DNA of 52,879 nucleotides. It comes from a virus. The first letter of the stretch is position 1. Each line of letters opens with the position of its first letter. Shown here piece after piece: positions 7,291 to 52,879 of this stretch. The notes under the pieces were generated by a model. The model ran no database searches and was not told the DNA's origin. It saw nothing but the letters and a program-made list of their open reading frames with translations. The DNA lies in the IMG/VR virus record IMGVR_UViG_3300045988_062993, positions 1 to 52,879 of that record; one strand, given 5' to 3'. A program made the position numbers and the translations under genes.

Positions 7291-8434
7291 CTTCCAATCC
7301 TCCGTAAACAACCTTGCAGGTGGTCAGCTTCGGAATCTCAGCGCTGCCAACCACAACGTCGGTCGGCGCGGTGATTTTCACTTTCTTTGCTCCGGCGTTT
7401 TTGATTTGTGCAATCAGTTCCGCCGGGTCAATGTCCCTGCCCATGGTGCGCTGCCACACCTTGTAGTTTTCAATGGCTTCATTTACTGCATTCTGTACCG
7501 TGACAGCGATTTTCGATTTGCTGCGAGCAATAGTATAGGTCACGTCAATGCTGTACTCGATCTCGGTCGGGGCTTTGCAGTTCACATAGTCCGTCATGGG
7601 GCGGCGTGCATCATCACGCAGATTTTCTTCCATGCTCTCACAATCGCTTTTGCTCGGCAGGGTTCCGTCCTGCAATGTAAAATAAATATCCACCACGCAA
7701 GGTGATGGACTTTCCACTGAAACATCTTTCACATCGTTCCGCCATGCCTTGGCGAAGTATTCATACGAATCCGGCGGACCGGCACAGCTGTATGTAGAGG
7801 GCACCAGATATGTTCTCTCCGTCAGCGAATCATCGCTTTCAATGTCGGTGCCGCCGCTGCTGGCGGTAATGTTCACCGCTGATGCAACATAGGGAATGGG
7901 GTCCACCAGCTGATTGATCTGCCCTTCCTCAATGCCAGACGATGCCGCGCCTTCCTCTGCGGCTTCTGCTTCCACGTCCGCATACTGCGAACCGGGCGCG
8001 ATTTCCGCATAGTCCATCGTGGCAAAATAAATACCGTCCTGCGTTCTAACGCGGGTCTTCGCCGGAATGCCTACGGCACCGGGTTGTTTTGCATCCGCCA
8101 GAGTAAACCGGATCGTCACCTTTGCTTTTTCTGCCGGCCGCCGGGTCAGGCCGTAGTTTCCGGCCAAATCGTCCAAATCATCGTGTGCCGAATATTTCAG
8201 CAACATCCGTTTCGGGCCAGCATCAACGTATTGCAGGATTTGATATCCAAGCAGCGTCATAGCTTTCAGCACCAGCGCTGGGACACTCGCGGGATAAATA
8301 ACCGGTGTCTGCCCGGTCGCGCCCTGCATGGATCGGCTGAATCCGTTCTTTGTCAGTTCTTCAACCTCCTTCATGGTCAGGTTGTCGATAAAACTGATAT
8401 CCGGCAGGTCTTTAAGCTGGGCAATTTCAGACAC
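7283..8434 (-). CDS. Baseplate protein J (P2 gpJ-like)
   Basis: Its size, its order between gpW and gpI, and Baseplate_J-like sequence support the call. GTG start at 8434 with a GAAGGTGG RBS. Confidence 0.8.
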   Translation of the reverse strand: MSEIAQLKDLPDISFIDNLTMKEVEELTKNGFSRSMQGATGQTPVIYPASVPALVLKAMTLLGYQILQYVDAGPKRMLLKYSAHDDLDDLAGNYGLTRRPAEKAKVTIRFTLADAKQPGAVGIPAKTRVRTQDGIYFATMDYAEIAPGSQYADVEAEAAEEGAASSGIEEGQINQLVDPIPYVASAVNITASSGGTDIESDDSLTERTYLVPSTYSCAGPPDSYEYFAKAWRNDVKDVSVESPSPCVVDIYFTLQDGTLPSKSDCESMEENLRDDARRPMTDYVNCKAPTEIEYSIDVTYTIARSKSKIAVTVQNAVNEAIENYKVWQRTMGRDIDPAELIAQIKNAGAKKVKITAPTDVVVGSAEIPKLTTCKVVYGGLEDD

Positions 8435-27956: not shown

Positions 27957-27963
27957 ATGCCCC

Positions 27964-28006
27964 GGATGCTCTAGCAGGGTTGCACCGTAAAGCAGCCCCG
28001 CCCCAG
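27964..28006 (+). repeat. Intergenic hairpin repeat, copy 1
   Basis: GGATGCTCTAGCA-GGGTTGC-ACCGTAAA-GCAGCCC-CGCCCCA, with a 7-bp stem containing one G-U pair. Confidence 0.7.
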
Positions 28007-28058
28007 CCGCAAGGCACACAACACCCACCGCCCAGGGTAAAGGGCAGAAAGAAAACAC

Positions 28059-28367
28059 ATGAAAAAAATCATCAATGGCCGGATGTACAACACCGACACG
28101 GCAAAGCGGCTGTGCAGTGCAGACAATGGCGGCAGTTGCCGCGACTTCTCCCACTGGGAAGAAGAGCTCTACCAGAAGAAAACGGGCGAGTTCTTCTTGT
28201 ACGGTGAGGGCGGCCCCGCAAGCAAGTATTCTCGCTCCTGTGGTCAAAACGAGTGGTGCGGCGGTTGCGATATTACCCCGATGACCGAACAGCAGGCCCG
28301 CGAGTGGATGGAGCAGAACGCCACCGCGGACGAATACGTTGAAGTTTTCGGAGAGCCGGAAGAGTAA
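28059..28367 (+). CDS. Hypothetical protein (102 aa)
   Basis: Track ORF. The pattern MKKIINGRMYNTDTAKRL...LYQKKTGEFFLYGEGG resembles small proteins of Firmicutes mobile elements, recognised by eye only. Confidence 0.6.
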   Translation: MKKIINGRMYNTDTAKRLCSADNGGSCRDFSHWEEELYQKKTGEFFLYGEGGPASKYSRSCGQNEWCGGCDITPMTEQQAREWMEQNATADEYVEVFGEPEE

Positions 28368-28378
28368 CGACCGGCGCG

Positions 28379-28421
28379 GACACTCTAGCCGGGTTGCACC
28401 GCACAAAGCAGCCCAGCCCCA
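28379..28421 (+). repeat. Intergenic hairpin repeat, copy 2
   Basis: GACACTCTAGCC-GGGTTGC-ACCGCACAAA-GCAGCCC-AGCCCCA. Confidence 0.7.
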
Positions 28422-28476
28422 TACCTGGCACACCGCCGGGACCATTTGAGAACTGAATAACAGGAGGTTTTACACC

Positions 28477-29328
28477 ATGAGAAACAACGATCTGATTGCA
28501 ACCGCCGTTTGTGCCCAGTACACCCCCGAACAGCTGCACAAGCTGGCCGCCCACTACTACACCGCCGACGAGATCGCCAGCGCCGCCGCAAAAATCATTG
28601 TGGAGCCGGGCGAAGACGGCACCGCACCCGATCCGGTGGAGATTGCAGAAGAAACCCTTTGCGCCGCTCTTTTCCACACGTTCGACGGCTGGAAAAGCCC
28701 CAGAAACGGCGGGCTGAGCGTCAAGCGCGGCGAAAAGGCCGTGATCCGCTGCAAGCTCTGGAAGTACAAGGACAGCCCCAAGCCCGAAGACCTGCCCGCC
28801 GACGCTGACCCGCTGACCCGGGCAGCCGCTGAGCAAGGCGGCGGTGACTACTACATGACCACCGCCTACCTTTTCGGACGTTGGCAGGTCGAGAAGCGCG
28901 ACCCGAAGAAACCCGCAGAAAAACGCTTTAAGTCCCTTGATGACATCCGGGCCTATAACAAGATGCTGGCCGACCAGCGCAAAGCCGCCAAGGCTGCCGC
29001 TGCCCAGCAGGACAAGCCCCAGACCGAACCGGCGACCGCCGAACAGCCCGCCCCGGCTCCCAATCAGGAAGCAGTGCCCAGCGTGGCCGCACTCAAGCAG
29101 GCAGAACGCAAGGCAAAGCGGGAATTTATGGCCGTGTCCGAAGAGGACCGCCCCGCCCAGGCGAAAGCGCTGGCAAAGTGGCGCGATACCCGGCAGGCCG
29201 TCGCAGACGCAGAGAGCGCACCGAAGACCGCCGCACCCGCACCCGAAGCAAAGCCCCAGACCAAAGCAGCCCCCGCCGCCAGCGCAGACAGCGCCCCGGC
29301 ATACTGCGAACAGACTTCTTTCTGCTGA
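28477..29328 (+). CDS. Hypothetical protein with a weak ArdC-N-like ssDNA-binding motif and a low-complexity Ala/Pro/Lys tail
   Basis: FDGWKSPRNGGLSVKRGEKAVI resembles the W...G..V+KGEK signature. RBS is CAGGAGG. Confidence 0.55.
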   Translation: MRNNDLIATAVCAQYTPEQLHKLAAHYYTADEIASAAAKIIVEPGEDGTAPDPVEIAEETLCAALFHTFDGWKSPRNGGLSVKRGEKAVIRCKLWKYKDSPKPEDLPADADPLTRAAAEQGGGDYYMTTAYLFGRWQVEKRDPKKPAEKRFKSLDDIRAYNKMLADQRKAAKAAAAQQDKPQTEPATAEQPAPAPNQEAVPSVAALKQAERKAKREFMAVSEEDRPAQAKALAKWRDTRQAVADAESAPKTAAPAPEAKPQTKAAPAASADSAPAYCEQTSFC

Positions 29329-29332
29329 ATGG

Positions 29333-29375
29333 GATACCCTAGCAGGGCCGCACCCAGAAAAGCGGCCCCGCCCCA
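29333..29375 (+). repeat. Intergenic hairpin repeat, copy 3 (compensatory stem changes)
   Basis: GATACCCTAGCA-GGGCCGC-ACCCAGAAAA-GCGGCCC-CGCCCCA. TT/AG in copies 1, 2 and 6 is replaced by CC/GG, which keeps the pairing. Confidence 0.7.
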
Positions 29376-29429
29376 CACCCGGCACCCCGCCGGGACGATT
29401 TGAAAATTGAATAGCAGGAGGATTATACC

Positions 29430-30014
29430 ATGAAACTTTCTACCAACTTCACCCTGTTCGGCCTCAATGTCAAGGCGATCCAAGCCTATCTCAAGGAGCA
29501 GGCAAAGGACCGGCGCGGGGTTCGCATCACCTGCCGTGGCGATCTGGTCTATATCATCACAGCATACACCGCGTTCAAGCTGCCCTCTGTCCTGTATGCC
29601 GACGTGATCCAGCCCGTGACATTCCGCGAATGCCCCGCCGACGGCGTGACCATCATTTCCGCCCAGTATGGTTTTGAGGTGGAAGAGAACGCGCCGGATC
29701 TGGTGGACATCTTCAAGCGCCACGCCCCCAACGAAAAGCCCGTGGAGCGCACGCCGTTCTTGCAGGACATTCCCACCGGCAAAAAGAAGAGCGGCCTTGC
29801 ACGGCTTTTCCACATCGGGACAACGCCCATCTTGATAAATGCCGACTACGACAGCATGGTGAACCCGGTGCAATTCACCTATCACGGCACGACGCGCGGC
29901 TATTCCCCCGTGTACGCTGTCAGCGCCAGCGATCCGACGATCTCCGTCATCATGCTGCCCATCAAGCCCACCGCAGAAGTGGAAACGCTCTGCAAGAAAA
30001 TGTTTTCCGAATGA
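29430..30014 (+). CDS. Hypothetical protein (194 aa)
   Basis: Track ORF with a CAGGAGG RBS. Confidence 0.6.
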   Translation: MKLSTNFTLFGLNVKAIQAYLKEQAKDRRGVRITCRGDLVYIITAYTAFKLPSVLYADVIQPVTFRECPADGVTIISAQYGFEVEENAPDLVDIFKRHAPNEKPVERTPFLQDIPTGKKKSGLARLFHIGTTPILINADYDSMVNPVQFTYHGTTRGYSPVYAVSASDPTISVIMLPIKPTAEVETLCKKMFSE

Positions 30015-30125
30015 CCCGCAAGGCCGACGGCATCCCGCCGCCGCTGGTGCAAGCCCAGCCGCCCCGCCGGGGCGGGCGCTCATGGGTCCACACCCAGACA
30101 CAACAGAATAACAGGAGGTTTTACC

Positions 30126-30626
30126 ATGTCTTGCATTCAACTTTCCGAAAAGCACATTGCCACCGTCGCTCACGGTCTGGCATTCATCCTCAACGGGGCC
30201 GGCGGTATGTGCCACCTTGCCGCATCCTACGAGCTGCCGGAGTTGTCCGACGCTCTGAGCGCCTGCCGATATCCGCACGACTTTCTCTTTGATGACCGCA
30301 AGATTTACGCCGTTCTCTACAAGCTGAACGATGCCGCATACACTGGCCGCTACCACTTGGAGACAGCCGACGCCGAAGATTTTCCCACCATGCCGGCCAT
30401 CTTTCCGCACCTGCTCCATCTTCTCGACTGGGATGCAGGGCGCTATACAATCGACCGCGATTTTTACGCATTCACAAAGCTGCTGGACAGTTTCATCTAC
30501 CAGTGCAACGAAGATGCAACCCGGAACAACCCCGTTCTAAAAGCTCTTTCCGGCACTTCCCGTGCACTGTATGCGTTCATTGTCCAGAATGCCGCCGAAT
30601 ACAACAACGCCGAATGGATCATCTGA
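30126..30626 (+). CDS. Hypothetical protein (166 aa)
   Basis: Track ORF with a CAGGAGG RBS. Confidence 0.6.
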   Translation: MSCIQLSEKHIATVAHGLAFILNGAGGMCHLAASYELPELSDALSACRYPHDFLFDDRKIYAVLYKLNDAAYTGRYHLETADAEDFPTMPAIFPHLLHLLDWDAGRYTIDRDFYAFTKLLDSFIYQCNEDATRNNPVLKALSGTSRALYAFIVQNAAEYNNAEWII

Positions 30627-30635
30627 CCCGCCCCG

Positions 30636-30676
30636 GACACCTCAGCAGGGCCGCACCGTAAAGCGACCCCGCCCCA
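30636..30676 (+). repeat. Intergenic hairpin repeat, copy 5
   Basis: GACACCTCAGCA-GGGCCGC-ACCGTAAA-GCGACCC-CGCCCCA, with one stem mismatch. Confidence 0.65.
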
Positions 30677-30760
30677 GCCCGCAAGGGCCACACGAAAACG
30701 CGAACCCCCTACCGGGGAGAGTGAAACGCTTTGAAAACTGAATATTTGGATGTTTACACA

Positions 30761-31690
30761 ATGGCTATTATCAACGAATCCGCCGCCCGTCTGGCAAAGC
30801 AAATGCGCTCTTTCGATGACTACAAGGAAGGCAGCGCCACCGCCAGTTACAACGCCCAGTGCGCCGAAGCCGCCGCGATTCTGGAAAAGGTCAAGGCAAA
30901 ATGTGCCACGGATGAACAGCGGGAGCGTGCCGAATACCTGTATAGCCGGTATTGTTCCGTTCTGGCTGAAGCCATCAACCGGGACAACGAGATCGGCACC
31001 CGGTGCCCGTCCGTGCTGGTCTGCGGCGCCAGCAACTTCCCGATCCGCAAAAAGGAAAAGCAGATTGCAGCGTGGGACAAGAACATGGAGAACTTCCGCA
31101 AGGCAGACCACTATTTGGATATGCTCAAGCGTGCCCACACGCTGGCTGTTAAATCCGATGATCCCGAAGTGCTTGATTTTCTCCGGTCAAAGCTGGCCGG
31201 ACTGGAGGAAGCGCACGCGCTCATGGTGTCCGCCAATGCCTACTACCGCAAGAACAAAACGCTAGAAGGCTTTGAAGGCATCCCCGCCGATACCATGGCA
31301 TGGATCACCCGCCCCGGCGTGTATCTGCCCGGTGGCCGCAACGGTGACGGTTCCCCCCTGGCTTTTTACGGCAAGCCCTTCCCGACCTACGAACTCACAA
31401 ACAGCAACGCCAACATCAAGCGAGTAAAGCAGCGTATTGAAACGCTGGAAGCTGTCAAAGCATCTCAACCGATTGAAGAGGAACACGACGGCTACACCTA
31501 CCGTGAGAACGCCGAAGCAATGCGTGTTCAATTCCAGTTCGACGGCAAACCGGACGACGAAACCAGGGCACTTCTCAAGCGCAACGGTTTCCGGTGGGCA
31601 CCGTCGCAGGGTGTCTGGCAGCGTCAGCTTAACGACAACGGCAAGTATGCCGCCCACCGCGTCATGGAAGCTCTGGACGGCCAGCAGTAA
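30761..31690 (+). CDS. DUF3560-like protein
   Basis: The C-terminal ...LLKRNGFRWAPSQGVWQRQL matches the DUF3560 signature as I remember it. ATG at 30761; the track start at 30731 is TTG. Confidence 0.6.
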   Translation: MAIINESAARLAKQMRSFDDYKEGSATASYNAQCAEAAAILEKVKAKCATDEQRERAEYLYSRYCSVLAEAINRDNEIGTRCPSVLVCGASNFPIRKKEKQIAAWDKNMENFRKADHYLDMLKRAHTLAVKSDDPEVLDFLRSKLAGLEEAHALMVSANAYYRKNKTLEGFEGIPADTMAWITRPGVYLPGGRNGDGSPLAFYGKPFPTYELTNSNANIKRVKQRIETLEAVKASQPIEEEHDGYTYRENAEAMRVQFQFDGKPDDETRALLKRNGFRWAPSQGVWQRQLNDNGKYAAHRVMEALDGQQ

Positions 31691-31693
31691 AAC

Positions 31694-31735
31694 GGATGCT
31701 CTGACGGGGTTGCACCGTAAAGCAGCCCCGCCCCA
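31694..31735 (+). repeat. Intergenic hairpin repeat, copy 6
   Basis: GGATGCTCTGAC-GGGGTTGC-ACCGTAAA-GCAGCCCC-GCCCCA. Confidence 0.7.
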
Positions 31736-31872
31736 CTACCCCGGTAGCCCGCCGGGGCATCTTGTGTTATACTATTGCTGTCTTGAATATGCGTTTTTCT
31801 GGTGCTTATGTGCTCAAACTGAGCATATTTGTATCAAAATCATGGTTAAGTGTTCGGAAATGAGGTGTTTTT

Positions 31873-34721: not shown

Positions 34722-34868
34722 CCCTATCACCTCCTGTCCCGGTCAGCTTCCTGTGTTTATTTTTTCTTCTGTGGACCAGCACAGTCACAGAAATAACGGG
34801 TATACAAGCTCCCTAAAGAGGACTTTCGCCCCTTTAGGTTATGCTTTTGTTTTGCCAATTTCTGGCAG

Positions 34869-37759: not shown

Positions 37760-37806
37760 TCGGTGGGCACTTCCGGGCTTGAACCGGGCGGGGCCTGTCC
37801 CATGCT
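37760..37806 (-). ncRNA. Degenerate tRNA-3'-half-like element (T-arm mimic) following a terminator hairpin
   Basis: Minus sense reads GAGCATGGGACAGGCCCCGC-CCGG-TTCAAGC-CCGG-AAGTGCCCACCGA. It is preceded by the hairpin 37817..37846 and TTTTATAT. Confidence 0.2.
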
Positions 37807-37850
37807 CATATAAAAGGCAGCCGCCGCACCGGGCGGTTGCCTGCCAGAAT

Positions 37851-39631: not shown

Positions 39632-40170
39632 TTGACCTCTCTTATAATCCAGACCCGGTGTTCACCGTATCCTTCCCAGTTCAGCGCATCCTCATGACTG
39701 TCAGAAACAGCCACGTCCAGCTTGTTGCCCTGAATAGCTGCACCGCGATCCTGCACAACGCGCACGCCAATGCCTTCTATGTACAGAACCGTTCCAAATG
39801 GCAGGCTTTCGTCTGCCGCAACGGTCAGCCCCGCCGTCACCGGTGCGCCACTGGCGGTGATGCCGTCGCCGGTGCCGCAAATGTGCGGGTATTCTTCTGT
39901 GCAGTACGCCGTACACAGAAATTCCCCGGCATATTCCTTTGTCAGCCCATCCGGCAGGGCATTTTCATTGGCGGCAGTCTGTAACTGGTCGATAACTTCT
40001 TCATCCTGAATTGCCCTGTCCTGCCAGTTTGCCAGACGGGCGGAATAGATAATACGCTGTCCTTCCAGATCGTTGATCCGATTCTCCAAAGCTGCATTCC
40101 TTGCACCTCCGATAAGCGTAGCCGTCAGGAGCGCGGCAAGCACCGCTTTATTGACTGTTGACATTTTCAC
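39628..40170 (-). CDS. 3D-domain (MltA-like) cell-wall-acting protein with an N-terminal membrane anchor
   Basis: FLCTAYCTEE...CGTGDGITASGAPV..GLTVAADESLPFGT.LYIEG.G.RVVQDRGAAIQGNKLDV matches the 3D domain. GTG at 40170 lies 7 nt after AGGAGG. Confidence 0.7.
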   Translation of the reverse strand: MKMSTVNKAVLAALLTATLIGGARNAALENRINDLEGQRIIYSARLANWQDRAIQDEEVIDQLQTAANENALPDGLTKEYAGEFLCTAYCTEEYPHICGTGDGITASGAPVTAGLTVAADESLPFGTVLYIEGIGVRVVQDRGAAIQGNKLDVAVSDSHEDALNWEGYGEHRVWIIREVK

Positions 40171-42013
40171 TTCCAAACCTCCTTTTCGTCACCGCGATTG
40201 GAAACTCTTCTATCTCACTTGCCCAGCGTGCCGTGCCTTTCCCGTATGTAGTCTCCCACACTAGAGGAAATCCGCCGATTCCGTCAAACAAGCTACCCAG
40301 CGTTGCGCCCGCCGGAAGGTATTGCTTCATTTTCTGGGCGATCCAGAACCACTGCGGCAGGGCAATGGAATTTCCAAGTGCTTTGTACCGCGGACTGTCT
40401 GCCGCCTTGTGCTTTTTCCCTTTGGTATCCGTCCACTCTCCAATGTCCGTCCACCCGTCCGGGTAGCCTTGCAGGCGTTCACATTCTGTTGGTGTCAGTC
40501 TGCGGACTATCCACCGAATTTTCGTTTCCGTTAGAACAGACTGCTGATTTTGCCCCGCTTTCTCTCTCGCCGACAGCGCTGGAAATGTTCCGTTCTCGCT
40601 ATATATCCGCCGAGCCTGATTATCCCACGGCGTCAAACAATCTTTCGGCTCTGTCACAATCGCTGTATAGTCCATGACCCTACTTTCATGATCTCCCGTA
40701 ATAGTTGGAACCGTCTTTCCGTTCCCATTACCTCTTGCGTCATATACCTCCACAACAGCAGATGGTGTATGTGCACTGGCTGCCAGAGGATGGCACGGGT
40801 CGCCCCAGCACGGACGGCTCCCGTTCTGTGGGCTTGTTATCTGTGTTGTGTCAAACGGCATCGCGTCAAGAATTCTGCATCTGACCAGCATATCGTTGTA
40901 AGCATCTTGTCCGTTGTAGCTTCCAGCGTGAGCGCCGGGCGAAAGAGTACCTGTTTTTTCCTGAATCGGCATCGGCTGAACTATAGCAAGTCCGCCCTGA
41001 TTCTTTGTTGGGTTTGCGTCAGAGCAGTCCAGTGTTTTGCTCACATTTGTTTCATTGAACCCGCTGTATGGATTTGCCGATTTCATGCTGTTGCTTGATA
41101 ACGGATTTATGGAATACGCAACTGCGTGACGGTCAATTGTGTTCAGTGTATATCCCACTTCTTCTTTTGCGCCCAAGCCGTTCGCCCCTGCCGTATCGGC
41201 GCAGTCAACGATGTTTCCCGCAATGCAATAGCACACGCCATGTTCATGCCGCGCCTGTAGAGTAAAGGCCGGGTCTCCATTCTTTCCAAGTCCAAGACCT
41301 GTTTTTTCTCCCATCGAGATGTGCCTTGTAGCAATTTGTGTGTTTATTGGGATCACTTCCCCAGCTTGCACTAGCTGGAAGAGCGTCTGGTCTTGGAGTG
41401 TCGATAGCGTCCCGACTTTTTCTGTTTGCACAAGTGCGCCCTTTCCGCCGCCTGCGCATCCTGAACGGATTTTAAGAGTGTACGCAGCTGCTTCTCCGCT
41501 TTCTCTCTTATCCGTTCTTTTCTCTCGGCTAGAGCAGCTAACTTCTCCCGTCTTATCCGCTTCTGCTCTTCCGCAATCAGCATCTCCATCGCCTTTGCAG
41601 CTGCACCCGGTTCCCACCACTCCATCATTTCCAGCAGGGCGGTTTGTAGCAAGTCCTGCAATTCCTTTCCACGCCGGGATGCACGAATCATAATGCCCAG
41701 GCACGCTTTCGCGCTCAAATAGTATTTCTCCGGCACGTCCACCTGCAAAATCCACGACAAGAGCGATACGTTTTCTTCTCTGGGGCACTCCCCAATATTG
41801 AGCGTCGAGCTGTCGCCAAGCCAGAGACCATCCGTTTCCGGCGATTGCTCCGGCTTTGCTCCATCTGCCCCCCCCTCGGAGGTCCAGGAACAGCAGCGTC
41901 CGCTTGTCCAATGCGGGCAAGTTCTTCCAGCACGGCACGGAAATCTCTTCCTCCGTTTGAACTGAATGCTCCGGGTACGTTTTCCCAAATAGCGAAAGTT
42001 GGATACAGTCCAT
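40148..42013 (-). CDS. DNA (cytosine-5) methyltransferase, distal frame: motifs VIII, TRD, IX and X, then motif I at the C-terminus
   Basis: The motifs are QYWGVPQRRKRIALV (VIII), RRLTPTECERLQGYPDGWT (IX), YKALGNSIALP (X), then LGSLFDGIGGFPL...WASEIEEFPIAVT (I). This frame is only joined to the upstream part if the G8 run at 41868..41875 were G7. Confidence 0.7.
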   Translation of the reverse strand: MDCIQLSLFGKTYPEHSVQTEEEISVPCWKNLPALDKRTLLFLDLRGGGRWSKAGAIAGNGWSLAWRQLDAQYWGVPQRRKRIALVVDFAGGRAGEILFERESVPGHYDSCIPAWKGIAGLATNRPAGNDGVVGTGCSCKGDGDADCGRAEADKTGEVSCSSREKRTDKRESGEAAAYTLKIRSGCAGGGKGALVQTEKVGTLSTLQDQTLFQLVQAGEVIPINTQIATRHISMGEKTGLGLGKNGDPAFTLQARHEHGVCYCIAGNIVDCADTAGANGLGAKEEVGYTLNTIDRHAVAYSINPLSSNSMKSANPYSGFNETNVSKTLDCSDANPTKNQGGLAIVQPMPIQEKTGTLSPGAHAGSYNGQDAYNDMLVRCRILDAMPFDTTQITSPQNGSRPCWGDPCHPLAASAHTPSAVVEVYDARGNGNGKTVPTITGDHESRVMDYTAIVTEPKDCLTPWDNQARRIYSENGTFPALSAREKAGQNQQSVLTETKIRWIVRRLTPTECERLQGYPDGWTDIGEWTDTKGKKHKAADSPRYKALGNSIALPQWFWIAQKMKQYLPAGATLGSLFDGIGGFPLVWETTYGKGTARWASEIEEFPIAVTKRRFGSENVNSQ

Positions 42014-42197
42014 TTGTGCTTGACCTCATTTCCTTTATGATCCGAACCGCCTCCATGAACAGTCCAGATCGTTTTCCCGCAAGTCCTGCCCTGCGGCCTG
42101 CAATGGACAAGTCTTGACACGGCGAACCAAAAGTGATGCAGTACACGGGTTCTATTTGGTCGCCATGTATCTTTGTGATATCTCCTAGATGAATCAT
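41715..42197 (-). CDS. DNA (cytosine-5) methyltransferase, proximal frame: motifs IV and VI, terminating out of frame after the G8 run
   Basis: The ATG at 42197 forms an ATGA overlap with the upstream ORF and has a GAGGTGGAG RBS. The motifs are MIHLGDITKI..., FGSPCQDLSIAG (IV) and FAIWENVPGAF (VI). Confidence 0.7.
   Translation of the reverse strand: MIHLGDITKIHGDQIEPVYCITFGSPCQDLSIAGRRAGLAGKRSGLFMEAVRIIKEMRSSTNGLYPTFAIWENVPGAFSSNGGRDFRAVLEELARIGQADAAVPGPPRGGQMEQSRSNRRKRMVSGLATARRSILGSAPEKKTYRSCRGFCRWTCRRNTI
41868..41875 (-). repeat. Homopolymer G8 (C8 on the plus strand) at the frame junction of the methyltransferase
   Basis: Minus sense reads ...cct ccg aGGGGGGGG cag... Confidence 0.9.
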
Positions 42198-42394
42198 TTC
42201 TCCACCTCTTTGGATTTGATTGCCAACCACCACAGTGCGGCGTGAAGCGCGAAGCCCGGGCAAGCCTGAACCGTCACCTGACTTGCAACGATTTTAATTG
42301 CTTCTTCGATTTCTTCTCGTGGCGGCATTGACGTATGAAGAAATCTTGCCTTTGCAATCTTCTCTAATGTTCTGATTGCATCAACATACAGCAC
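42194..42394 (-). CDS. Hypothetical protein (66 aa), translationally coupled to the methyltransferase
   Basis: GTG start follows ATAGGAGG. Its stop overlaps the MTase ATG. Confidence 0.45.
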   Translation of the reverse strand: MLYVDAIRTLEKIAKARFLHTSMPPREEIEEAIKIVASQVTVQACPGFALHAALWWLAIKSKEVEK

Positions 42395-42432
42395 GTTTTT
42401 GACCTCCTATTGGTTTCATCTCATAACTCTTG

Positions 42433-42509
42433 CACGGGTGGCCGGAATCGAACCGGCTTGTCTTCCGCTGGGGGATCAGGACGGCAGGCAACTTCCTTAC
42501 TACACCCGC
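42433..42509 (-). ncRNA. tRNA-like element (77 nt): 7-bp acceptor stem plus a canonical T-arm, but no foldable anticodon arm
   Basis: GCGGGTG...GCCGG-TTCGATT-CCGGC-CACCCGT-G. A short D-like stem GTAA/TTGC is present. I could not form a 5-bp/7-nt anticodon arm. Confidence 0.3.
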
Positions 42510-42512
42510 ATA

Positions 42513-42547
42513 TCAAAATCCACCGCGCAAGAGAGGTGGCGCGGTGG
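42513..42547 (-). terminator. Intrinsic terminator-like hairpin immediately 5' of the tRNA-like element
   Basis: CCACCGCGC-cacctctctt-GCGCGGTGG followed by ATTTTGATAT. Confidence 0.5.
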
Positions 42548-42801
42548 GGCGACCCGTTGCGGTCGGGTCTGCTGCCTTTTGCCTGGGCAATTGGGACAGG
42601 GCGTTTCTGCGCTCACGCTGCGACGTGCCATTCAGCTTATGCTGGACTGCCATGCGGGCACGGTTTAGGAAATACGGACAGGTCGGATTTTCACCGCCTT
42701 ATACGGAAGGTTAGCGCTGCTTTTTCAGCATCCGTATTTCCCTGCCAGTTTTGGAAGATGAACAAACCTTGACCGGCTTCCATGGAATATGCGAGCAAAG
42801 C

Positions 42802-42855
42802 GGCGCAGGCGGGGTTCGACCCCGCTCCCAGCGTGCTGTGGGCACACCCTGCGCC
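42802..42855 (-). ncRNA. Mini tRNA-like element (54 nt): perfect 7-bp acceptor-like stem and two hairpins
   Basis: GGCGCAG-G-GTGTGC.CCACA.GCACGC-TGGGA-GCGGGG.TCGAA.CCCCGC-CTGCGCC. Confidence 0.2.
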
Positions 42856-42924
42856 ATATAAAAACCGCCCGGCCTTCACACATGACAACTGCTGCTTATC
42901 TGCTGAAAACTCTGGCCGGGCGGT
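42856..42924 (-). terminator. Long-loop hairpin plus U-tract immediately 5' of the mini tRNA-like element
   Basis: ACCGCCCGGCC, a 39-nt loop, then GGCCGGGCGGT followed by TTTTTATAT. Confidence 0.4.
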
Positions 42925-42929
42925 TACAT

Positions 42930-43388
42930 TCAGTTTGTTTTGTGGTGTGTCACACTATATTCTTCGCATTCCTTGTTGTACCCATCGCAGGGCGCGCACC
43001 GCTGCGACGTGATACGGAACGTATGTTGACACTGTTCACTCTTCTGTTTGCCCTTCTTCGGGGCTGAATTGGTCTTTGTGGATCTAGCAAGGTTCTTCAT
43101 TTCTTTTGCCTTATATAAGTAGGTGCCAGTGCCCAGTGGCACCGCATTCAAGCGGAGCTTTGGTTGAACCCTGCGTGTCCGGTAACGGCGCTTGTTGTGA
43201 ACGGCCCATCCCGGTTTTTCTGGCGGTAAAAGCGTATGTGTCAGGTCGTCCAGTCCTTCATAGAATCGCTTGACGTCCTCTGTGATTTTCTCAAACGCAT
43301 CTTTGATCGTCTGATACATTTTCAGCAGGTCGCCCACCGGGTCTTCGGACCATTCCCGCGTGCCGTGTTCAGGATCGGTCGTCGTCAT
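42930..43388 (-). CDS. Hypothetical protein (152 aa)
   Basis: Internal ATG (MTTTDPEHG...) of track ORF 42930..43415. Confidence 0.5.
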   Translation of the reverse strand: MTTTDPEHGTREWSEDPVGDLLKMYQTIKDAFEKITEDVKRFYEGLDDLTHTLLPPEKPGWAVHNKRRYRTRRVQPKLRLNAVPLGTGTYLYKAKEMKNLARSTKTNSAPKKGKQKSEQCQHTFRITSQRCAPCDGYNKECEEYSVTHHKTN

Positions 43389-44818: not shown

Positions 44819-44852
44819 CTTTTGTCCTTTCTATTGGTGTGAATCTTCGGTC

Positions 44853-44916
44853 TGGTGGAGCATTCCGGGATTGAACCGGTTCCGGGGCTACACCCCCGGA
44901 CGCGCCTGCATACTCC
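44853..44916 (-). ncRNA. D-armless tRNA-like element (60 nt plus encoded ACCA)
   Basis: GGAGTAT-GCAGGCGCG-TCCGGGG.GTGTAG.CCCCGGA-ACCGG.TTCAATC.CCGGA-ATGCTCC-ACCA. The 7-bp acceptor stem contains one G-U pair. The T-loop fits TTCRANN. Confidence 0.3.
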
Positions 44917-44917
44917 A

Positions 44918-44947
44918 TAAAACGGGCGGCTTGACAGGCTGCCGCCC
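44918..44947 (-). terminator. Intrinsic terminator-like hairpin immediately 5' of the tRNA-like element
   Basis: GGGCGGC-agcctgtcaa-GCCGCCC followed by GTTTTAT. Confidence 0.5.
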
Positions 44948-45088
44948 ACCCATGCGGGCCGCCCTATGTATTCTTTCAGTCCTCAGTAGGTAGGACCCCC
45001 GACTGTCGGAATGGCCGGGGCAGCCGTCTGCGTCCCCACGTTTCCGGCTGCATGGTGGGCGTGATCCGGTGCGCCCAGACCTTTGCGG

Positions 45089-46273: not shown

Positions 46274-46302
46274 ATTATAGTCAATTTTCGGAACGTTGTC
46301 AA
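46274..46302 (-). promoter_or_regulatory. Consensus sigma-70 promoter for the early leftward operon
   Basis: Minus sense reads TTGACA, a 17-nt spacer, then TATAAT. The spacer contains GTTCCGAAAA. Confidence 0.6.
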
Positions 46303-46382: not shown

Positions 46383-46871
46383 ATGACCATCGGTGAAAGA
46401 ATTAAAATCCTCCGTAAAGAGAAATGTCTTTCAATGGAGGACTTCGGCGCTATAATCGGTATGGGTAAGTCTGCCGTCAGCCGTATCGAAAACGGAGTCA
46501 ACGGCACAACGGACCAGACCATCCGTTCCATCTGCCGGGAGTTTGGAGTAAACGAACAGTGGCTCCGCACTGGTGAGGGCGAAATGTTTGAGCAGACCCG
46601 GGCAAGCGTGCTGGATCGGCTGTCCACGGAATACGATCTGAGCAGGGAGCAGCGTTCCGTAATTGAAGCGTTCCTTGATCTGGACCCGCAGGAGCGGGAC
46701 GTGATTCTGAAGTATGTACATAACGTTTTTGACCGTTCCGCAGAATCCGCAGCCAAGAGCACAGCAATACCCGATAAGGAAGCCCAGCGCATTGCCGAAA
46801 GTGACGAGTTCAAAACCCTTCGGGAAAAGAACGAGCCGCCGGAGAGCGAATCGTGTACTACCGCCGGTTAG
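46383..46871 (+). CDS. XRE-family HTH repressor (CI-like)
   Basis: The N-terminal HTH is IGERIKILRKEKCLSMEDFGAIIGMGKSAVSRIENG. It is divergent from the early operon. Confidence 0.8.
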   Translation: MTIGERIKILRKEKCLSMEDFGAIIGMGKSAVSRIENGVNGTTDQTIRSICREFGVNEQWLRTGEGEMFEQTRASVLDRLSTEYDLSREQRSVIEAFLDLDPQERDVILKYVHNVFDRSAESAAKSTAIPDKEAQRIAESDEFKTLREKNEPPESESCTTAG

Positions 46872-47631: not shown

Positions 47632-47689
47632 CTCAGGTATTCAACGTTTCAGCTGTGGAAGCATTCTAATTTTCTGAAAGGTGGTATTT

Positions 47690-49330
47690 ATGCCTCACAA
47701 AAAGAAACTACAAGAGGTAGGCGGTCGGCGTCTGGTGGCCTACTATCGCTACTCCGGCGGTAGTCATCAAACGGAGCAGTCCATTGAGGGCCAGCGCCGG
47801 GACTGTGAGACCTACGCCCGTATCCACGGCATGGTCATTCTGCATGAATATATTGACCGGCATATCTCCGGCAAGACGGACGACCGCCCGGAGTTCCAGC
47901 AGATGATTGCCGATGCCGGGAAAGGGATGTTCGACTATGTGATCTGCTGGAAAACAGACCGCATTGCCCGCTCCCGGTATGACAGCATCATCTATAAAAA
48001 GAAGCTCCGCGACAACGGCGTGGAGCTGCTCTATGCTGCAGAAGCCAACGTTGAAGGTTCCGGCGGTATCATCGTGGAGGGCTTGATGGAAGCCCTTGCC
48101 GAATACTACTCCGCCGAACTGGCCGAGAAGGTGCGGCGCGGTATGCGGGAAAGCGCCTTGAAAGGCAAGGCTATTGGCAGTTCCCGCCCCCTTGGCCTTA
48201 CCGTTGACAAGGACAAGAAGTATATCATCGACCCTGCCGGGGCTGCCGCCGTGCGGTATATCTTTGAGCAGTACGCCGCCGGGGCTGCGTCCTCTGCTAT
48301 CGTTGCACACCTGAATGAACAGGGCTTGTGCACCAGCCGGGGCAACCCGTTCAATAAGTCCAGCGTTGTGCGCATCATCCAAAACGAGGTTTATCGGGGC
48401 GTGTATGTCAGCCCCAAGTTTGACGTGCGCATTGAGGGCGCAGTACCGGCCATTATTGACGACGATCTATGGGAGAGGGCGCAGAAGATGTTTATTCGTA
48501 ACCGCCAGAGCCGTTCCCCGCGCAATGACCGCGCAGACTACATCCTGTCCGGCAAGCTGTTTTGCGGCGAGTGCGGCACTGCCATGAAGGGTGTGTCCGG
48601 CCACAGCAGCAACGGCGAGGTGTACTTCTACTACAACTGTCCGTGCAAGGACTGCCACCGCCGGAACATCCCGAAGGACGAGCTGGAAGGTCTGGTGATC
48701 CGCACCGTCTGTAACGACGTGTTGCAGCCGGACGTGATGGATCACATTGCAGACAGTGTGATCGAAGCCCAGACCGCCGAACTGAACCAGCCCAACCCGG
48801 AGAAGGAAGCATTGCAGCACGAGCTTGCCGACGTGCAGCGCAAGGCAAAGAACCTGCTGTCTGCATTGGAGAACGGCACCGCCGGGGCTATGCTGACCAA
48901 CCGCCTTGCCGAACTGGAACAGCAGGCAGACACGCTATCCTATCAGCTGTCGTCGCTGGAATCTGAGCCGAAGTTCCCGGTCTTCTCCAAGGAAGAAGTT
49001 CTGTACCTGCTGGAACAGTTCCTCATTGCCCCCAGCGAGAAAACCAAGGCATACCGCCGCCGCCTGATCGATACCTTTGTCAGCAAGATTGAGGTGAGCA
49101 ATACGGAACTGACCATCTATTTCAACATTGCCGAGGAAGATTGTGGAAAAATAAAAAAAGCTCCCCAGTCGAACCAGCCCGAAGGCTGTTCGACTGAGAA
49201 GCAAATGGTCCGCCTTTTGCTTCCCCAGTCGAACTTTTCTATTTTTATCCTTCCGACCTATTTTTACATCGCAATTCCCATTTTTCAGGCGAGAAAGACC
49301 ATTTCCGTTGAATCTGTAACCAGTTTGTAA
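47690..49330 (+). CDS. int: Large serine recombinase (integrase)
   Basis: The resolvase catalytic domain reads VAYYRYSGGSHQTEQSIEGQRRDC...GKTDDRPEFQQM. Recombinase and zinc-ribbon (CGECG...CPCKDC) regions and a coiled-coil follow. ATG at 47690 follows AAAGGTGG. Confidence 0.9.
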   Translation: MPHKKKLQEVGGRRLVAYYRYSGGSHQTEQSIEGQRRDCETYARIHGMVILHEYIDRHISGKTDDRPEFQQMIADAGKGMFDYVICWKTDRIARSRYDSIIYKKKLRDNGVELLYAAEANVEGSGGIIVEGLMEALAEYYSAELAEKVRRGMRESALKGKAIGSSRPLGLTVDKDKKYIIDPAGAAAVRYIFEQYAAGAASSAIVAHLNEQGLCTSRGNPFNKSSVVRIIQNEVYRGVYVSPKFDVRIEGAVPAIIDDDLWERAQKMFIRNRQSRSPRNDRADYILSGKLFCGECGTAMKGVSGHSSNGEVYFYYNCPCKDCHRRNIPKDELEGLVIRTVCNDVLQPDVMDHIADSVIEAQTAELNQPNPEKEALQHELADVQRKAKNLLSALENGTAGAMLTNRLAELEQQADTLSYQLSSLESEPKFPVFSKEEVLYLLEQFLIAPSEKTKAYRRRLIDTFVSKIEVSNTELTIYFNIAEEDCGKIKKAPQSNQPEGCSTEKQMVRLLLPQSNFSIFILPTYFYIAIPIFQARKTISVESVTSL

Positions 49331-50922: not shown

Positions 50923-51309
50923 TCATTCCGTGGCGGTGCTGGTCACGCTCAGCACCTGTTCGTACACATCACAAAGCGCCATCTGGGTGCTAGTGAGCTG
51001 GTCTGCCATGGTGGCGTTCTGGTTTTCCAGCTCCTTCACCCGGTCTTCCAGCTTCTTTTCTTCCGGCACCGGGACGGGTGTAGGCGGCGCATAGTCCCAC
51101 CATTTGTCAAAGTCCGTCTGAACTTCCTCGGCGGTCAGCACACCATCCACACGCTGCTGGCGTTCGTCGCAGGCGTATACGGTATACTTCTTGCCTTCGT
51201 CATCGGTCTGTTCCTGCTTTTTGATATCCTTCCGCAGGATCATGTCCGTTTTGCTGCCAACGCGAAACACCTCAACGGCGGCCGGCAGGAAGGGATAAAT
51301 CTCACTCAT
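50923..51309 (-). CDS. Hypothetical protein (128 aa), translationally coupled to the reverse transcriptase
   Basis: The ATG at 51309 overlaps the RT stop (ATGA). RBS is AGGAGGAAAG. The C-terminus is a coiled coil. Confidence 0.55.
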   Translation of the reverse strand: MSEIYPFLPAAVEVFRVGSKTDMILRKDIKKQEQTDDEGKKYTVYACDERQQRVDGVLTAEEVQTDFDKWWDYAPPTPVPVPEEKKLEDRVKELENQNATMADQLTSTQMALCDVYEQVLSVTSTATE

Positions 51310-52544
51310 GCTGCTTTCCTCCTGTTGTTCTGGATCATCGACCATCGGGCAACGCTCCACCGCGCTGCTTTCATGATCGTTTCGACCTGATATTTTTCTT
51401 CAAGGTTTGCGCTATCGCTGTTTGTAAACCAGCCGTTGTATGCGGTCAGCTTTGATGCACGCCAATGCGGAACATAGCCCAACATTGCAAGGTTACGCCC
51501 TGCGCGGATCAGCTGCCGCCTGATGCGGCGGAACACGCCTTTGCGGACGATGGTATATGTGCGGCGCACCGCGAATCCCATCATGTCCAGCGCCGGTGTA
51601 CGGTGTTTGCTTCCCTGCGCTCTGGCGGCTTTCGCACGCTTTTCTTCCTCGAATGATGCAAAGCGCACCTGCTGCCATGCCTGCTTTAACTCTAAGCCCA
51701 GTGTGGACTTTACCCAGCGGGTCGCCTTCTTCATCGCTTTCATCAGCTGTGATGCGTGCCCGATGATTACAAAATCATCCGCATAGCAGACGATCTCACG
51801 GACAAGCCGTGTCCCCGTGCCGCGCCGGACCTGCTTTAGGGATAGCAGGTATCGGAGAACATAGCTCATAACGTAGTTGAAAGCCCACGTTGAGAAATAC
51901 CCGCCGATTAACAGCACGCCGTCCGGGTAGTTTTCGGTCACAGCACCGGCATACCAGATCAGCTTTTTGTTCTTTCTGATGTCCCGCTTCAAAAGCGTTA
52001 TCACGCAGGCTATCGTTGTAGACGGATATGCTTTGTGCACATCGCCCTTGACTGCATCCAGTTTGCCAAGGATTTTCTTTCGGACGATCCGCTCAATCTG
52101 CCGCGTTCCCGCCACCTGTCCTTTGCCCGGGATGCTCCCGAACTGCATCGGCAGCAGCTTTGCATGGAGCAGCGGTTGCAGTGCATGGACAAGGATGTAC
52201 TCATGTACCTGCTGTTCCGGTGATTCCTGGCAAAGGTCCCGTTCCTTCATCTTGATGCCATCGATCCGCTTGAACTGCCGGACAGGTTTCAGGTCAAGGC
52301 ATTCGTCCCTAATCTTCTGTGTTTCCCGTTCGGCCACTGCGTCAATGGCATCAACGATCTTCCTGCACTCGTGGTTCTTTCGTTCATGAAACAGCTCCGG
52401 TTCAGAGATTTTTCCGGTCTTTGTTAGAACCGTTCTAAAATCCCTGCGCCGGAGTTTTCCGTTTCCAAACGCACAATGTACCGCTGACAGGTTGAAACCG
52501 ACATCCTCAATGTCAACGTCTTTTGGTTTACAAAATGTTTTCAT
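51306..52544 (-). CDS. Reverse transcriptase (DGR-type / group-II-like small RT)
   Basis: YxDD motif REIVCYADDFVIIG. Upstream motifs are FGSIPGKGQVAG, VKGDVHKAYPS and LLIGGYFSTWAFN. The thumb-like region is DMMGFAVRR. Confidence 0.85.
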   Translation of the reverse strand: MKTFCKPKDVDIEDVGFNLSAVHCAFGNGKLRRRDFRTVLTKTGKISEPELFHERKNHECRKIVDAIDAVAERETQKIRDECLDLKPVRQFKRIDGIKMKERDLCQESPEQQVHEYILVHALQPLLHAKLLPMQFGSIPGKGQVAGTRQIERIVRKKILGKLDAVKGDVHKAYPSTTIACVITLLKRDIRKNKKLIWYAGAVTENYPDGVLLIGGYFSTWAFNYVMSYVLRYLLSLKQVRRGTGTRLVREIVCYADDFVIIGHASQLMKAMKKATRWVKSTLGLELKQAWQQVRFASFEEEKRAKAARAQGSKHRTPALDMMGFAVRRTYTIVRKGVFRRIRRQLIRAGRNLAMLGYVPHWRASKLTAYNGWFTNSDSANLEEKYQVETIMKAARWSVARWSMIQNNRRKAA

Positions 52545-52680
52545 ATAAAAATCATCTGGTTCTTCAACGACTTTCGGGTTCAGGCTTTTGCCCTATGCTA
52601 CTAGCCGCCAGCAGGTTCCTTGTCCTGCCGCCACGGATGGACCCGCCCTTTCCTGCGGACGCAGCGCCGTGATGCTGGTT

Positions 52681-52879
52681 TCAAGAAATTTTCGCACATA
52701 AGCGCGGAATGCATGATGCAATGATTGATGATTTTTGGTGAACCAGTTGCACGCCAGCGCCGCCGTTCCAGTTCGCGTTACCGACCCAGTTGTTCGAGTT
52801 CGCCGCCGCCAAAGACGCATTGCCGCCGTTGTTCAAGTTGCAGCACCGCCAAGCCGCGCGGACACCGGACGCTGCCGGA
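52681..52879 (-). CDS. 3' end of the junction-spanning ORF begun at 1632, valid only if the circular join is real
   Basis: The frame is maintained across the 40-nt overlap: ...AAWRCC NLNNGGNASLAAANSNNWVGNANWNGGAGVQLVHQKSSIIASCIPRLCAKIS stop (TGA at 52683..52681). Confidence 0.4.
   Translation of the reverse strand, partial: PAASGVRAAWRCCNLNNGGNASLAAANSNNWVGNANWNGGAGVQLVHQKSSIIASCIPRLCAKIS
52765..52839 (-). repeat. DGR template-repeat-like segment (adenines confined to AAY codons)
   Basis: The 75 nt are aac ttg aac aac ggc ggc aat gcg tct ttg gcg gcg gcg aac tcg aac aac tgg gtc ggt aac gcg aac tgg aac. All 20 adenines lie in 9 AAC and 1 AAT codons. Confidence 0.6.
52840..52879. repeat. Terminal direct repeat (second copy of nt 1..40)
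   Basis: Exact 40-nt identity with the window start. Confidence 0.95.

Follow-up and report, generated by a model that had tools for sequence, protein, structure and literature searches.

A conserved structured RNA bracketed by tRNA-like modules in a long minus-strand operon of Faecalibacterium-type gut phages

The DNA analyzed here is the IMG/VR virus record IMGVR_UViG_3300045988_062993, positions 1 to 52,879 (the whole stretch is hereafter called the window), which belongs to a temperate, Faecalibacterium-type gut phage whose relatives are the Faecalibacterium phages FP_Toutatis and Lelie. On its minus strand, a gene gap at 42395-42929 lies between a gene for a Cys-rich protein of 152 amino acids (42930-43388, upstream) and a 66-amino-acid gene (42194-42394, downstream). 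This gap holds a noncoding island (42428-42924), which consists, in minus sense, of a terminator-like hairpin (T1), the leader UUUUUAUAU, a tRNA-like module (TL1), a pseudoknotted core of ~290 nucleotides (nt), a second hairpin (T2), the leader UUUUGAUAU, a second tRNA-like module (TL2), and the trailer GCAAGA. The folded RNA is ~420 nt long and carries a tRNA-shaped module at either end. Two further modules, TL3 and TL4, share one long minus-strand operon with the first two, and all four lie downstream of a perfect sigma-70-type promoter (TTGACA-17-TATAAT, 12 of 12 matches; 46274..46302, minus), which is likely the start of a leftward early operon. An earlier reading of the window, made from its letters only (the sequence-only reading), had listed T1, TL1, an 11-bp long-range helix, T2, and TL2 on the minus strand, and each of these is present where it had placed them.

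The same reading had found no credible open reading frame (ORF) in the 535 nt of the gap, and this holds up: sense frames in the island stay open for at most 61 codons, and the many 1-2-nt insertions and deletions (indels) between lineages indicate that the island is not coding. A hidden small ORF was rejected on the same two grounds. G.U cells outnumbered A.C cells (169 vs 42), and we therefore take the RNA to be the minus-sense strand. To follow the fold across homologous phages, as the sequence-only reading had suggested, we scored a curated structure on an alignment (A2) of 23 sequences from four lineages, with slid 3' partners and shuffles as controls. Standard pairs filled 95% of cells in the curated structure and 37-43% in the slid controls; pairs changed on both sides numbered 28 compared with 4-9; and the covariation score was 0.24 compared with 0.05-0.09, a value equalled by none of 500 shuffles. 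The stems that covary include the acceptor stems of TL1 and TL2 and the T stem of TL2.

The core begins with a conserved linker, UYCAUGRAAGC, and is tied together by a pseudoknot in which YCAUG of this linker (CCAUG in the window, 42781..42785, minus) pairs with CAUGR of the H3 loop (42650-42654). The outer pair of the pseudoknot is C-G in 13 and U-A in 10 of the aligned sequences. Among unique sequences, it is C-G in 35 and U-A in 22, with two scored as U.G through a mis-picked motif and no mismatches, and both states (C-G and U-A) are found within one TL2 clade. Hairpin H1 (GCCGGU...ACUGGC; 42744..42777, minus) is paired in 93% of cells, with two covarying pairs. It is followed by the H2 domain (42668..42741, minus), where an 11-bp long-range helix, GGAAATACGGA/TCCGTATTTCC in the window (as RNA, GGAAAUACGGA/UCCGUAUUUCC), encloses hairpins H2a and H2b. 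Across lineages, this helix covaries, with the forms GGAAAUACGG/CCGUAUUUCC, GGCAGAGGG/CCUUUCUGCC, and GGCGGAGCGG/CCGUUCUUGCC. A proximal partner for the H2 5' strand, UUCCGUAU, was also considered and rejected, because it is out of register across lineages while the distal 11-bp partner is retained. The H2 domain is variable, and it is almost deleted in the lineage of L166, L175, and L191 (L numbers are our handles for contigs).

Four more hairpins, H3 to H6, follow. H3 (42624..42662, minus; 98% paired, three covarying pairs) has in its internal loop the conserved motif CGCAUGR, which is the 3' strand of the pseudoknot, and RNAalifold's proposal that CCCGCAU pairs over a long range with the TL2 5' strand was dropped because the local H3 helix covaries. 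H4 (42601..42618, minus) consists of a 4-bp stem, paired in all cells and covarying at three of its four pairs, with the conserved loop GAGCGMAGAA, and is followed by CCYUGUYC. H5 (UUGCC...GGCAG, loop CCAGGCAAAAG; 42572..42590, minus) is likewise 100% paired, with four of five pairs covarying; a kissing interaction between its loop and the TL2 loop was considered and rejected, as the two show no covariation. H6 (GACCCG...CGGGUC; 42551..42569, minus) has three covarying pairs. Separately, CCCGCAUGG(G) is a motif found both in the H3 loop (42650-42658, minus) and just upstream of hairpin T3 (44950-44965, minus), in window-like and Toutatis-like phages alike.

At the 5' end of the island, T1 (42865..42924, minus) starts directly past the stop codon of the Cys-rich gene. 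Its outer stem of 10-11 bp gives a hairpin of -29.6 kcal/mol (z = -4.8), with TTTTTATAT next, and a hairpin of differing sequence is found here in every lineage. The leader that joins it to TL1 (42856..42864, minus) has U at position -1, and across all lineages this leader reads UUUUAUAU or UUUUAUGU. TL1 itself (42802..42855, minus; z = -2.7) is a 54-nt three-way junction in which a perfect 7-bp acceptor-like stem, GGCGCAG/CUGCGCC, encloses two hairpins, the first of variable length. The stem covaries at four positions, with the forms GGCGCGG/CCGCGCC, GGUGCGG/CCGCACC, GACGCAG/CUGCGUC, and GGCACGG/CCGUGCC in addition to that of the window. The 3' hairpin (GCGGGG/CCCCGC; GCGGGG-YCRNA-CCCCGY) abuts the 3' strand of the stem in the manner of a T arm.

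At the 3' end, T2 (42520..42547, minus; z = -5.0) is a 9-bp GC hairpin whose pyrimidine loop, CUCUCUU, is conserved and whose stem sequence varies by lineage. In the window, it is followed by ATTTTGATAT. The leader AUUUUGAUAU (42510..42519, minus) brings UAU to positions -3 to -1, and UAU directly before TL2 was invariant in a set of 34 diverse sequences. TL2 (42434..42509, minus; 76-77 nt) is composed of an acceptor stem, a linker, an arm with a C-rich loop, and a T arm. Its acceptor stem has 7 bp (GCGGGUG/CACCCGU, with G1.U72), and its T arm (GCCGG-UUCGAUU-CCGGC) has a 5-bp stem and a loop of the UUCRANY type. Pairing in the same 34 sequences reaches 99.6% in the acceptor stem and 97% in the T stem; either stem has three covarying pairs, and the T loop is nearly invariant. 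The sequence-only reading could fold no anticodon arm in TL2, and indeed there is none: an 11-nt linker and a ~10-bp arm with a conserved C-rich loop stand where a tRNA has its D and anticodon arms, and ARAGORN makes no call here. In L009 and L046, the long arm pairs perfectly; the window has two mismatches in it. Of the GG in the linker, one G (G24) is invariant and the other nearly so; judging from sequence, the T loop and this GG could form a tRNA elbow. The trailer GCAAGA (42428..42433, minus) follows as R-CAAGA in nearly all lineages. Its CAAGA is complementary to UCUUG of the T2 loop, which opens the possibility of a pseudoknot clamping TL2. Neither this pairing nor an alternative one of T2 with the TL2 acceptor strands is decided by covariation, as the sequences involved are either invariant or no more than similar.

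TL2 is derived from a tRNA, and the one it most resembles is phage tRNA-Gly(UCC). With the ARAGORN-called tRNA-Gly(UCC) of phage tRNA arrays (L030, L032, and L041), it has in common the 5' acceptor strand, the T arm, and 6 of 7 nt of the 3' strand, and scans of genome contigs for a host origin returned no match. Other phage tRNA arrays (L033 at ~7365-7437, L039, L043, L045, and L051) hold a tRNA-Gly(UCC)-like sequence with a normal CUUCCAA anticodon loop and a T arm and acceptor as in TL2. This sequence receives no ARAGORN call and may be a variant with an atypical D arm.

Recurrence of the hairpin-plus-module arrangement at 44853-44947, claimed by the sequence-only reading, is real. There, T3 (44924..44947, minus), a terminator-like hairpin with GUUUUAU next, precedes TL3 (44853..44916, minus; z = -2.25), which has the acceptor GGAGUAU/AUGCUCC, a 9-nt linker, a 7-bp hairpin, the T arm CCGG-UUCAAUC-CCGG, and an encoded ACCA at its end. 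Toutatis-like phages have a counterpart of TL3 with the same plan and a different sequence, behind a different hairpin, and the two forms differ by compensatory changes at three acceptor positions. A ribozyme in place of TL3 was looked for in relatives and none was found, the Toutatis site being occupied by this tRNA-like module of other sequence. Beside this site, the leader past TL3 (44819-44852, minus) contains a CCGAAKAUUYAC block common to window-like and Toutatis-like phages despite their differing TL3, and L108 has a deletion or recombination inside a Toutatis-type TL3. The degraded copy that had been suspected at 37760-37846 also exists. It comprises the terminator-like hairpin T4 (37816..37845, minus), then CUUUUAUAU, and the minimal module TL4 (37761..37807, minus; z = +1.0), with the stem GAGCAU/GUGCCC including a constant A.C mismatch, a small hairpin, the T arm CCGG-UUCAAGC-CCGG, and ACCG. 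TL4 is kept in all lineages that reach this region (window-like, L046, and Toutatis-like), with one covarying pair at stem position 6 (U.G, U-A, or C-G).

Several lines of evidence join the four modules into one class. A covariance model built from TL2 homologues only and run unfiltered over the whole window ranked TL2 first (93.5 bits), followed by TL3 (44851-44925; 21.2 bits, E ~9e-5) and TL1 (18.6 bits, E ~7.5e-4); the TL3 and TL1 matches were full length and on the same strand, with their UUUUAUAU leaders aligned. The T-loop motif GGTTCRANYCC occurs four times in the window, where 0.35 occurrences are expected. Each module has a hairpin upstream, U at -1, and G at +1, and a start codon follows 34-39 nt past each of TL2, TL3, and TL4, in agreement with the ~35 nt that had been noted for three cases. 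Acceptor-stem covariation is seen in TL1-TL4 and T-stem covariation in TL2 only. After T1, T3, and T4 come 4-5 U and then AUAU, and after T2, UUUUGAU, UUCUGAU, or CUUUGAU; the hairpins are strong, and a simple terminator scan picked up T4 alone among the four. TL1-TL4 keep the tRNA parts that are read by RNase P, RNase Z, and the CCA-adding enzyme, that is, an acceptor stem stacked on a T-arm-like hairpin, and are without the parts needed for decoding.

The island is not peculiar to the window. Its layout is present in >200 contigs of human-gut phages or prophages, which represent at least 10 sequence lineages. Identity to the window's island is ~63-73% in FP_Toutatis, Lelie, IMG/VR contigs, and an unverified gut phage scaffold, whose flanking genes differ. 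In IMG/VR, a pattern of the TL2 loop plus T loop found 25 loci, a TL2 T-arm/acceptor pattern found 48 (the nonisland matches being real phage tRNA genes), and the core motif GAGCGMAGAANNNCCYTGTYC from the H4 region found 107, of which ~60 were new and had strongly diverged TL1 and TL2. The viral island loci recovered with a TL2 pattern number 42. In human-gut metagenomes, a TL2 3' pattern found 92 loci, with GCAAGA after every one, and three of these lay within contigs of megabase size and are prophages. L075 was disregarded as an apparent chimeric assembly in which a CTP-synthase gene is joined to the island. In at least 10 lineages, the order is constant: Cys-rich gene, T1, UUUUAU(A/G)U, TL1, the linker UYCAUGRAAGC, H1, the H2 domain, H3, H4 (loop GAGCGMAGAA), H5, H6, T2, a UAU-ending leader, TL2, and R-CAAGA. 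The upstream neighbor is always the small Cys-rich gene, and the downstream genes are variable.

The database checks that the sequence-only reading had listed assigned the island to no tRNA, transfer-messenger RNA (tmRNA), ROOL, GOLLD, or other family. ARAGORN called no tRNA or tmRNA genes in the whole window or in L001-L003. With Rfam 15, the island matched no family at gathering thresholds or at E <= 10, region 42000-43300 gave no RF00005 (tRNA) match at E <= 10, and there was no match in six other lineages (E <= 0.5) or in ten relatives (gathering threshold). The sole weak Rfam match in the island is that of a tmRNA-model T arm, at 11.6 bits compared with a gathering score of 70. A tRNA gene was rejected on the negative ARAGORN and Rfam results and on the presence of an acceptor stem and T arm only, with no D arm or anticodon arm with a 7-nt loop. 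A tmRNA was rejected on the negative ARAGORN result, the local TL2 acceptor, a G-C pair at 3:70, the tail GCAAGA, and the lack of a conserved reading frame, given the indels. GOLLD, ROOL, RNase P RNA, T-box, and hepatitis delta virus (HDV)-like ribozymes gave no covariance-model match in the island or in the other lineages.

A second operon of the same phage is punctuated by other means. In the plus-strand operon at 27.9-31.8 kb, Rfam places a ribozyme-type element in nearly every gene gap (27962-31742), with five RAGATH-5 matches (at 27962, 28376, 29330, 30633, and 31692, plus) and one Twister-sister ribozyme (30011-30092, plus; 79 bits). Each element starts 1-3 nt past a stop codon and ends 30-45 nt ahead of the next start codon, a spacing like that of the tRNA-like modules in the minus-strand operon, and the cluster is also present in L026. 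With ribozymes in almost every gap of that operon, the punctuation of transcripts would already be a habit of this phage.

The surroundings of the island in the leftward operon contribute further context. Its gene content includes a C5 cytosine methylase, a protein resembling phosphoadenosine phosphosulfate (PAPS) reductase, and a protein resembling a recombination directionality factor. The Cys-rich protein upstream of the island has 98 homologues, none of them named, and no match in Pfam or PHROG. The RAST annotation of an upstream gene in Toutatis as a YhaM exoribonuclease was considered as a link and rejected, as that product is an HD-domain protein and no more, and shows no homology to the gene upstream in the window. 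The methylase (40148-42263, minus) has a start at 42196 (MIHLGDITK...) that overlaps the stop codon of the 66-amino-acid gene, and the same start is found directly after TL2 in L046- and L150-type phages; in the window, its frame seems split between two ORFs (41715-42263 and 40148-42013), which suggests a frameshift or insertion. Elsewhere in the operon, a 147-nt gap (34722-34868, minus) holds the hairpins CCUAAAGGGGC...GUCCUCUUUAGG and UUCUGUG...CACAGAA and is without a tRNA-like module. Farther away, a 412-amino-acid ORF (51306-52544, minus) has a Pfam RVT_1 match of E = 1.6e-5, under the gathering score, and just upstream of it, in the same sense, AAC/GGC codon-like repeats are abundant (~52640-52879); the pair resembles a diversity-generating retroelement, with a reverse transcriptase and a template repeat.

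Facing the sigma-70 promoter is a divergent gene for a helix-turn-helix repressor-like protein (46383-46871), and beyond it lies a gene for a large serine recombinase (47681-49330, plus). In the prophage copies, at 2563-2637 of L044 and at 39-112 of L046, the gene for the recombinase lies against a host tRNA-Pro(GGG) equipped with a promoter and terminator of its own, at a distance of 6 kb from the modules, and attB is therefore probably at tRNA-Pro. The sequence-only reading had raised the possibility that the tRNA-like modules are scars of tRNA-targeted integration. Since the recombinase abuts the host tRNA-Pro in prophages, integration is unrelated to the modules, which lie 3-10 kb away and carry both stem strands, kept by compensatory changes; we reject attP or an integration scar as their source.

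Among the roles that the sequence-only reading had entertained, RNase P/Z punctuation of the early transcript is the best fit, with one operon, the upstream hairpins, U at -1 and G at +1, and the acceptor/T-arm fold in its favor, the cleavage itself being what we infer. We give about an even chance to the reading that the modules punctuate the early operon in this way and release a stable structured RNA. Bacterial RNase P prefers U(-1)/G(+1), and the presence of this pair of nucleotides at all modules therefore fits processing. Transcription of the operon would run through the hairpins, and host RNase P would cleave at U(-1)|G(+1) of each module. This would have two consequences: (i) the upstream RNA would keep a 3' hairpin as a block to 3' exonucleases, and (ii) the downstream RNA would begin with a compact tRNA-like fold, a 5' stabilizer or insulator ~35 nt ahead of the ribosome-binding site. 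Alternatively, RNase Z may remove the tRNA-like fold where CCA is not encoded (TL1 and TL2). In the island, two cuts would free a discrete RNA of ~350 nt composed of TL1, the core, and T2. The suggestion that the parts are fragments of a larger ornate phage RNA holds in the main, the island being one conserved, pseudoknotted RNA of ~420 nt; this RNA is neither ROOL nor GOLLD. As for what its core does, our guess is a trans-acting early regulatory RNA or one directed at RNA polymerase or the ribosome.

Known processing elements offer several points of comparison. Plant mitochondrial t-elements are nondecoding tRNA-like folds beside coding regions that are cut by RNase P and RNase Z and define mRNA 5' and 3' ends (Forner et al. 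2007, PMC1920247). The t-elements and mitochondrial tRNA punctuation resemble the modules in their acceptor and T-arm mimicry and their place in long transcripts and are, together with mascRNA, functionally the closest systems, TL1-TL4 being likewise nondecoding, tRNA-shaped folds at intergenic sites of one operon, with support from covariation. However, t-elements are organellar, their cleavage is demonstrated, and they have no paired upstream hairpin and flank no large RNA, whereas the phage modules belong to a bacterial virus and their cleavage is predicted. In the MALAT1 and MEN-beta transcripts, the upstream RNA owes its mature 3' end to RNase P cleavage at mascRNA, and the small tRNA-like product is then a substrate for RNase Z and the CCA-adding enzyme. 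Here too a tRNA-like fold lies directly downstream of a stabilizing structure, but the setting is a eukaryotic nuclear long noncoding RNA with a triple helix rather than a hairpin and U run, and there is no downstream cistron.

TL2 is built on a plan like that of the tRNA-like part of tmRNA (acceptor, an unpaired, GG-containing D-loop analogue, a long helix where the anticodon arm would be, and a T arm of canonical form). In tmRNA, however, the acceptor is formed by the two ends of a 350-nt RNA, whereas the TL2 strands are local (76 nt), and TL2 has no tag frame, G3.U70, or encoded CCA. GOLLD and ROOL, like the island, are long, multihelix, pseudoknotted prophage RNAs of gut or Firmicutes-type bacteria beside tRNA-related sequence; the island is smaller (~420 nt) and without similarity to their Rfam models, and its tRNA-like parts belong to the conserved unit. 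Twister-sister and RAGATH-5 elements share with the modules the genome, the location in gene gaps, the distance to the ribosome-binding site, and presumably the outcome, a cut polycistronic RNA, but their cleavage is autonomous, their folds are unrelated, and no ribozyme family matches the island. The precursor of the C4 antisense RNA of phages P1 and P7 is freed from a longer transcript by host RNase P at a tRNA-like structure; C4 is small (77 nt), antisense, and from enterobacterial phages, with no similarity in sequence or architecture to the island.

Several points weigh against punctuation by RNase P and RNase Z. The cleavage, the enzymes, and the effects on stability are predictions, and T1, T3, and T4 resemble real intrinsic terminators, which would limit read-through into the modules. 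The modules also differ in how well they fit: TL4 folds poorly alone and was missed by the TL2 model, and the second hairpin of TL1 is without a canonical T loop. The analogy to the plus-strand operon is imperfect, as the ribozymes there have no preceding hairpin. Finally, TL2 is far more conserved than a simple processing signal needs, with a nearly invariant C-rich loop, GG linker, and CAAGA trailer. This, like the conservation of CUCUCUU in the T2 loop, suggests a further, specific partner.

The resemblance to terminators leads to an account that we regard as unlikely, yet one that deserves its place ahead of the other alternatives. Here, the hairpins would be true terminators that split the operon into temporal blocks, and the island would be a cis-acting antitermination or regulatory leader, the core and/or modules acting on RNA polymerase, alone or with the Cys-rich protein, like put RNA, EAR RNA, or N-nut, with passage of T2 and later terminators as the result. 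A GC-rich hairpin and U run ahead of every module, the same small Cys-rich gene always upstream of the island, a core that is pseudoknotted like known antiterminator RNAs, and a T2 loop that is conserved, unlike that of an ordinary terminator, would all suit such a leader. However, the terminator nearest to each module precedes it, T2 has a weak U tract that varies, the Cys-rich protein has no known family match, and the tRNA descent and conserved T loop favor tRNA-binding factors over RNA polymerase.

In a reading to which we give slightly less credence again, the modules are tRNA mimics that engage a host tRNA-binding factor, as decoy or sponge for acceptor-end toxins, an aminoacyl-tRNA synthetase, EF-Tu, the CCA-adding enzyme, or T-box leaders, and processing is only the route of their production. 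The acceptor and T arm of TL2 are nearly invariant between window-like and Toutatis-like phages, where the rest of the island is only 63-73% identical, the TL2 arm loop is conserved and C-rich, and TL3 encodes ACCA. Across the wider family, however, compensatory substitutions alter the acceptor sequence freely, which argues against sequence-specific recognition of the stem, and G3.U70 and other simple identity sets are absent. The four modules are also single-copy elements at fixed intergenic sites behind hairpins, unlike arrayed phage tRNA genes, and with no anticodon stem-loop to cut, they do not address anticodon nucleases; the proposal of the sequence-only reading that they are decoys for tRNA-targeting defenses is unsupported.

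A related and more speculative scheme, which we hold to be improbable, has the core act on or with its own flanking tRNA mimics. It would be either a new RNA that processes itself or binds tRNA, with the elbow and acceptor end of TL2 docked on it as on RNase P or a T-box, or a tRNA-capped effector that enters host tRNA pathways (CCA addition, aminoacylation, and ribosome or EF-Tu binding) for early host takeover. Contacts would be made through the near-invariant C-rich loop of TL2, through the conserved CUCUCUU in the T2 loop, and through the CAAGA trailer.

Mosaicism at the modules invites the proposal, in our view a poor candidate, that they are kept mainly as shared boundary sequences for cassette exchange between related phages, that is, as conserved recombination linkers. 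Homology between phages stops exactly past the CAAGA trailer, and at least four different genes come next; in the natural recombinants L079 and L143, the crossover falls inside TL2 and joins a window-like core to an L046-like TL2 5' half and downstream gene; and TL3 precedes different genes in different phages. However, mosaic junctions beside any strongly conserved element are an expected by-product, and the compensatory changes, the excess of G.U over A.C, and a fold kept despite sequence divergence show selection on the RNA fold and not on DNA identity. That the modules are decaying phage tRNA genes with no present function, as the clear tRNA ancestry of TL2 and the poor fold of TL4 might suggest, is contradicted by the comparative data and almost certainly wrong, given their retention in at least 10 lineages and at the same place in >200 contigs, covariation exactly in the acceptor and T stems, and conservation of the very region that replaces the D and anticodon arms.

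The island represents a structured RNA family that is widespread among human-gut phages and has no entry in Rfam. While tRNA-like processing elements are known, the setting in a bacterial virus and the framing of a new structured RNA family are new here, and our search of the literature on phage tRNA-like punctuation, this RNA, or RAGATH-5 found no direct precedent. If RNase P and RNase Z do cleave the modules, then tRNA punctuation in the mitochondrial style would, to our knowledge, be seen for the first time in a bacterial virus. Because both FP_Toutatis and Lelie, members of the island family, are Faecalibacterium phages in culture, these predictions are directly testable. The module of hairpin, UAU|G, and mini-tRNA is also a compact natural insulator design, with possible use in synthetic operons of Firmicutes. 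For the biology of these phages, RNase P/Z cleavage would mean that one phage solves the splitting of a long transcript into messages of independent stability and translation twice, by tRNA-like modules and by self-cleaving ribozymes.

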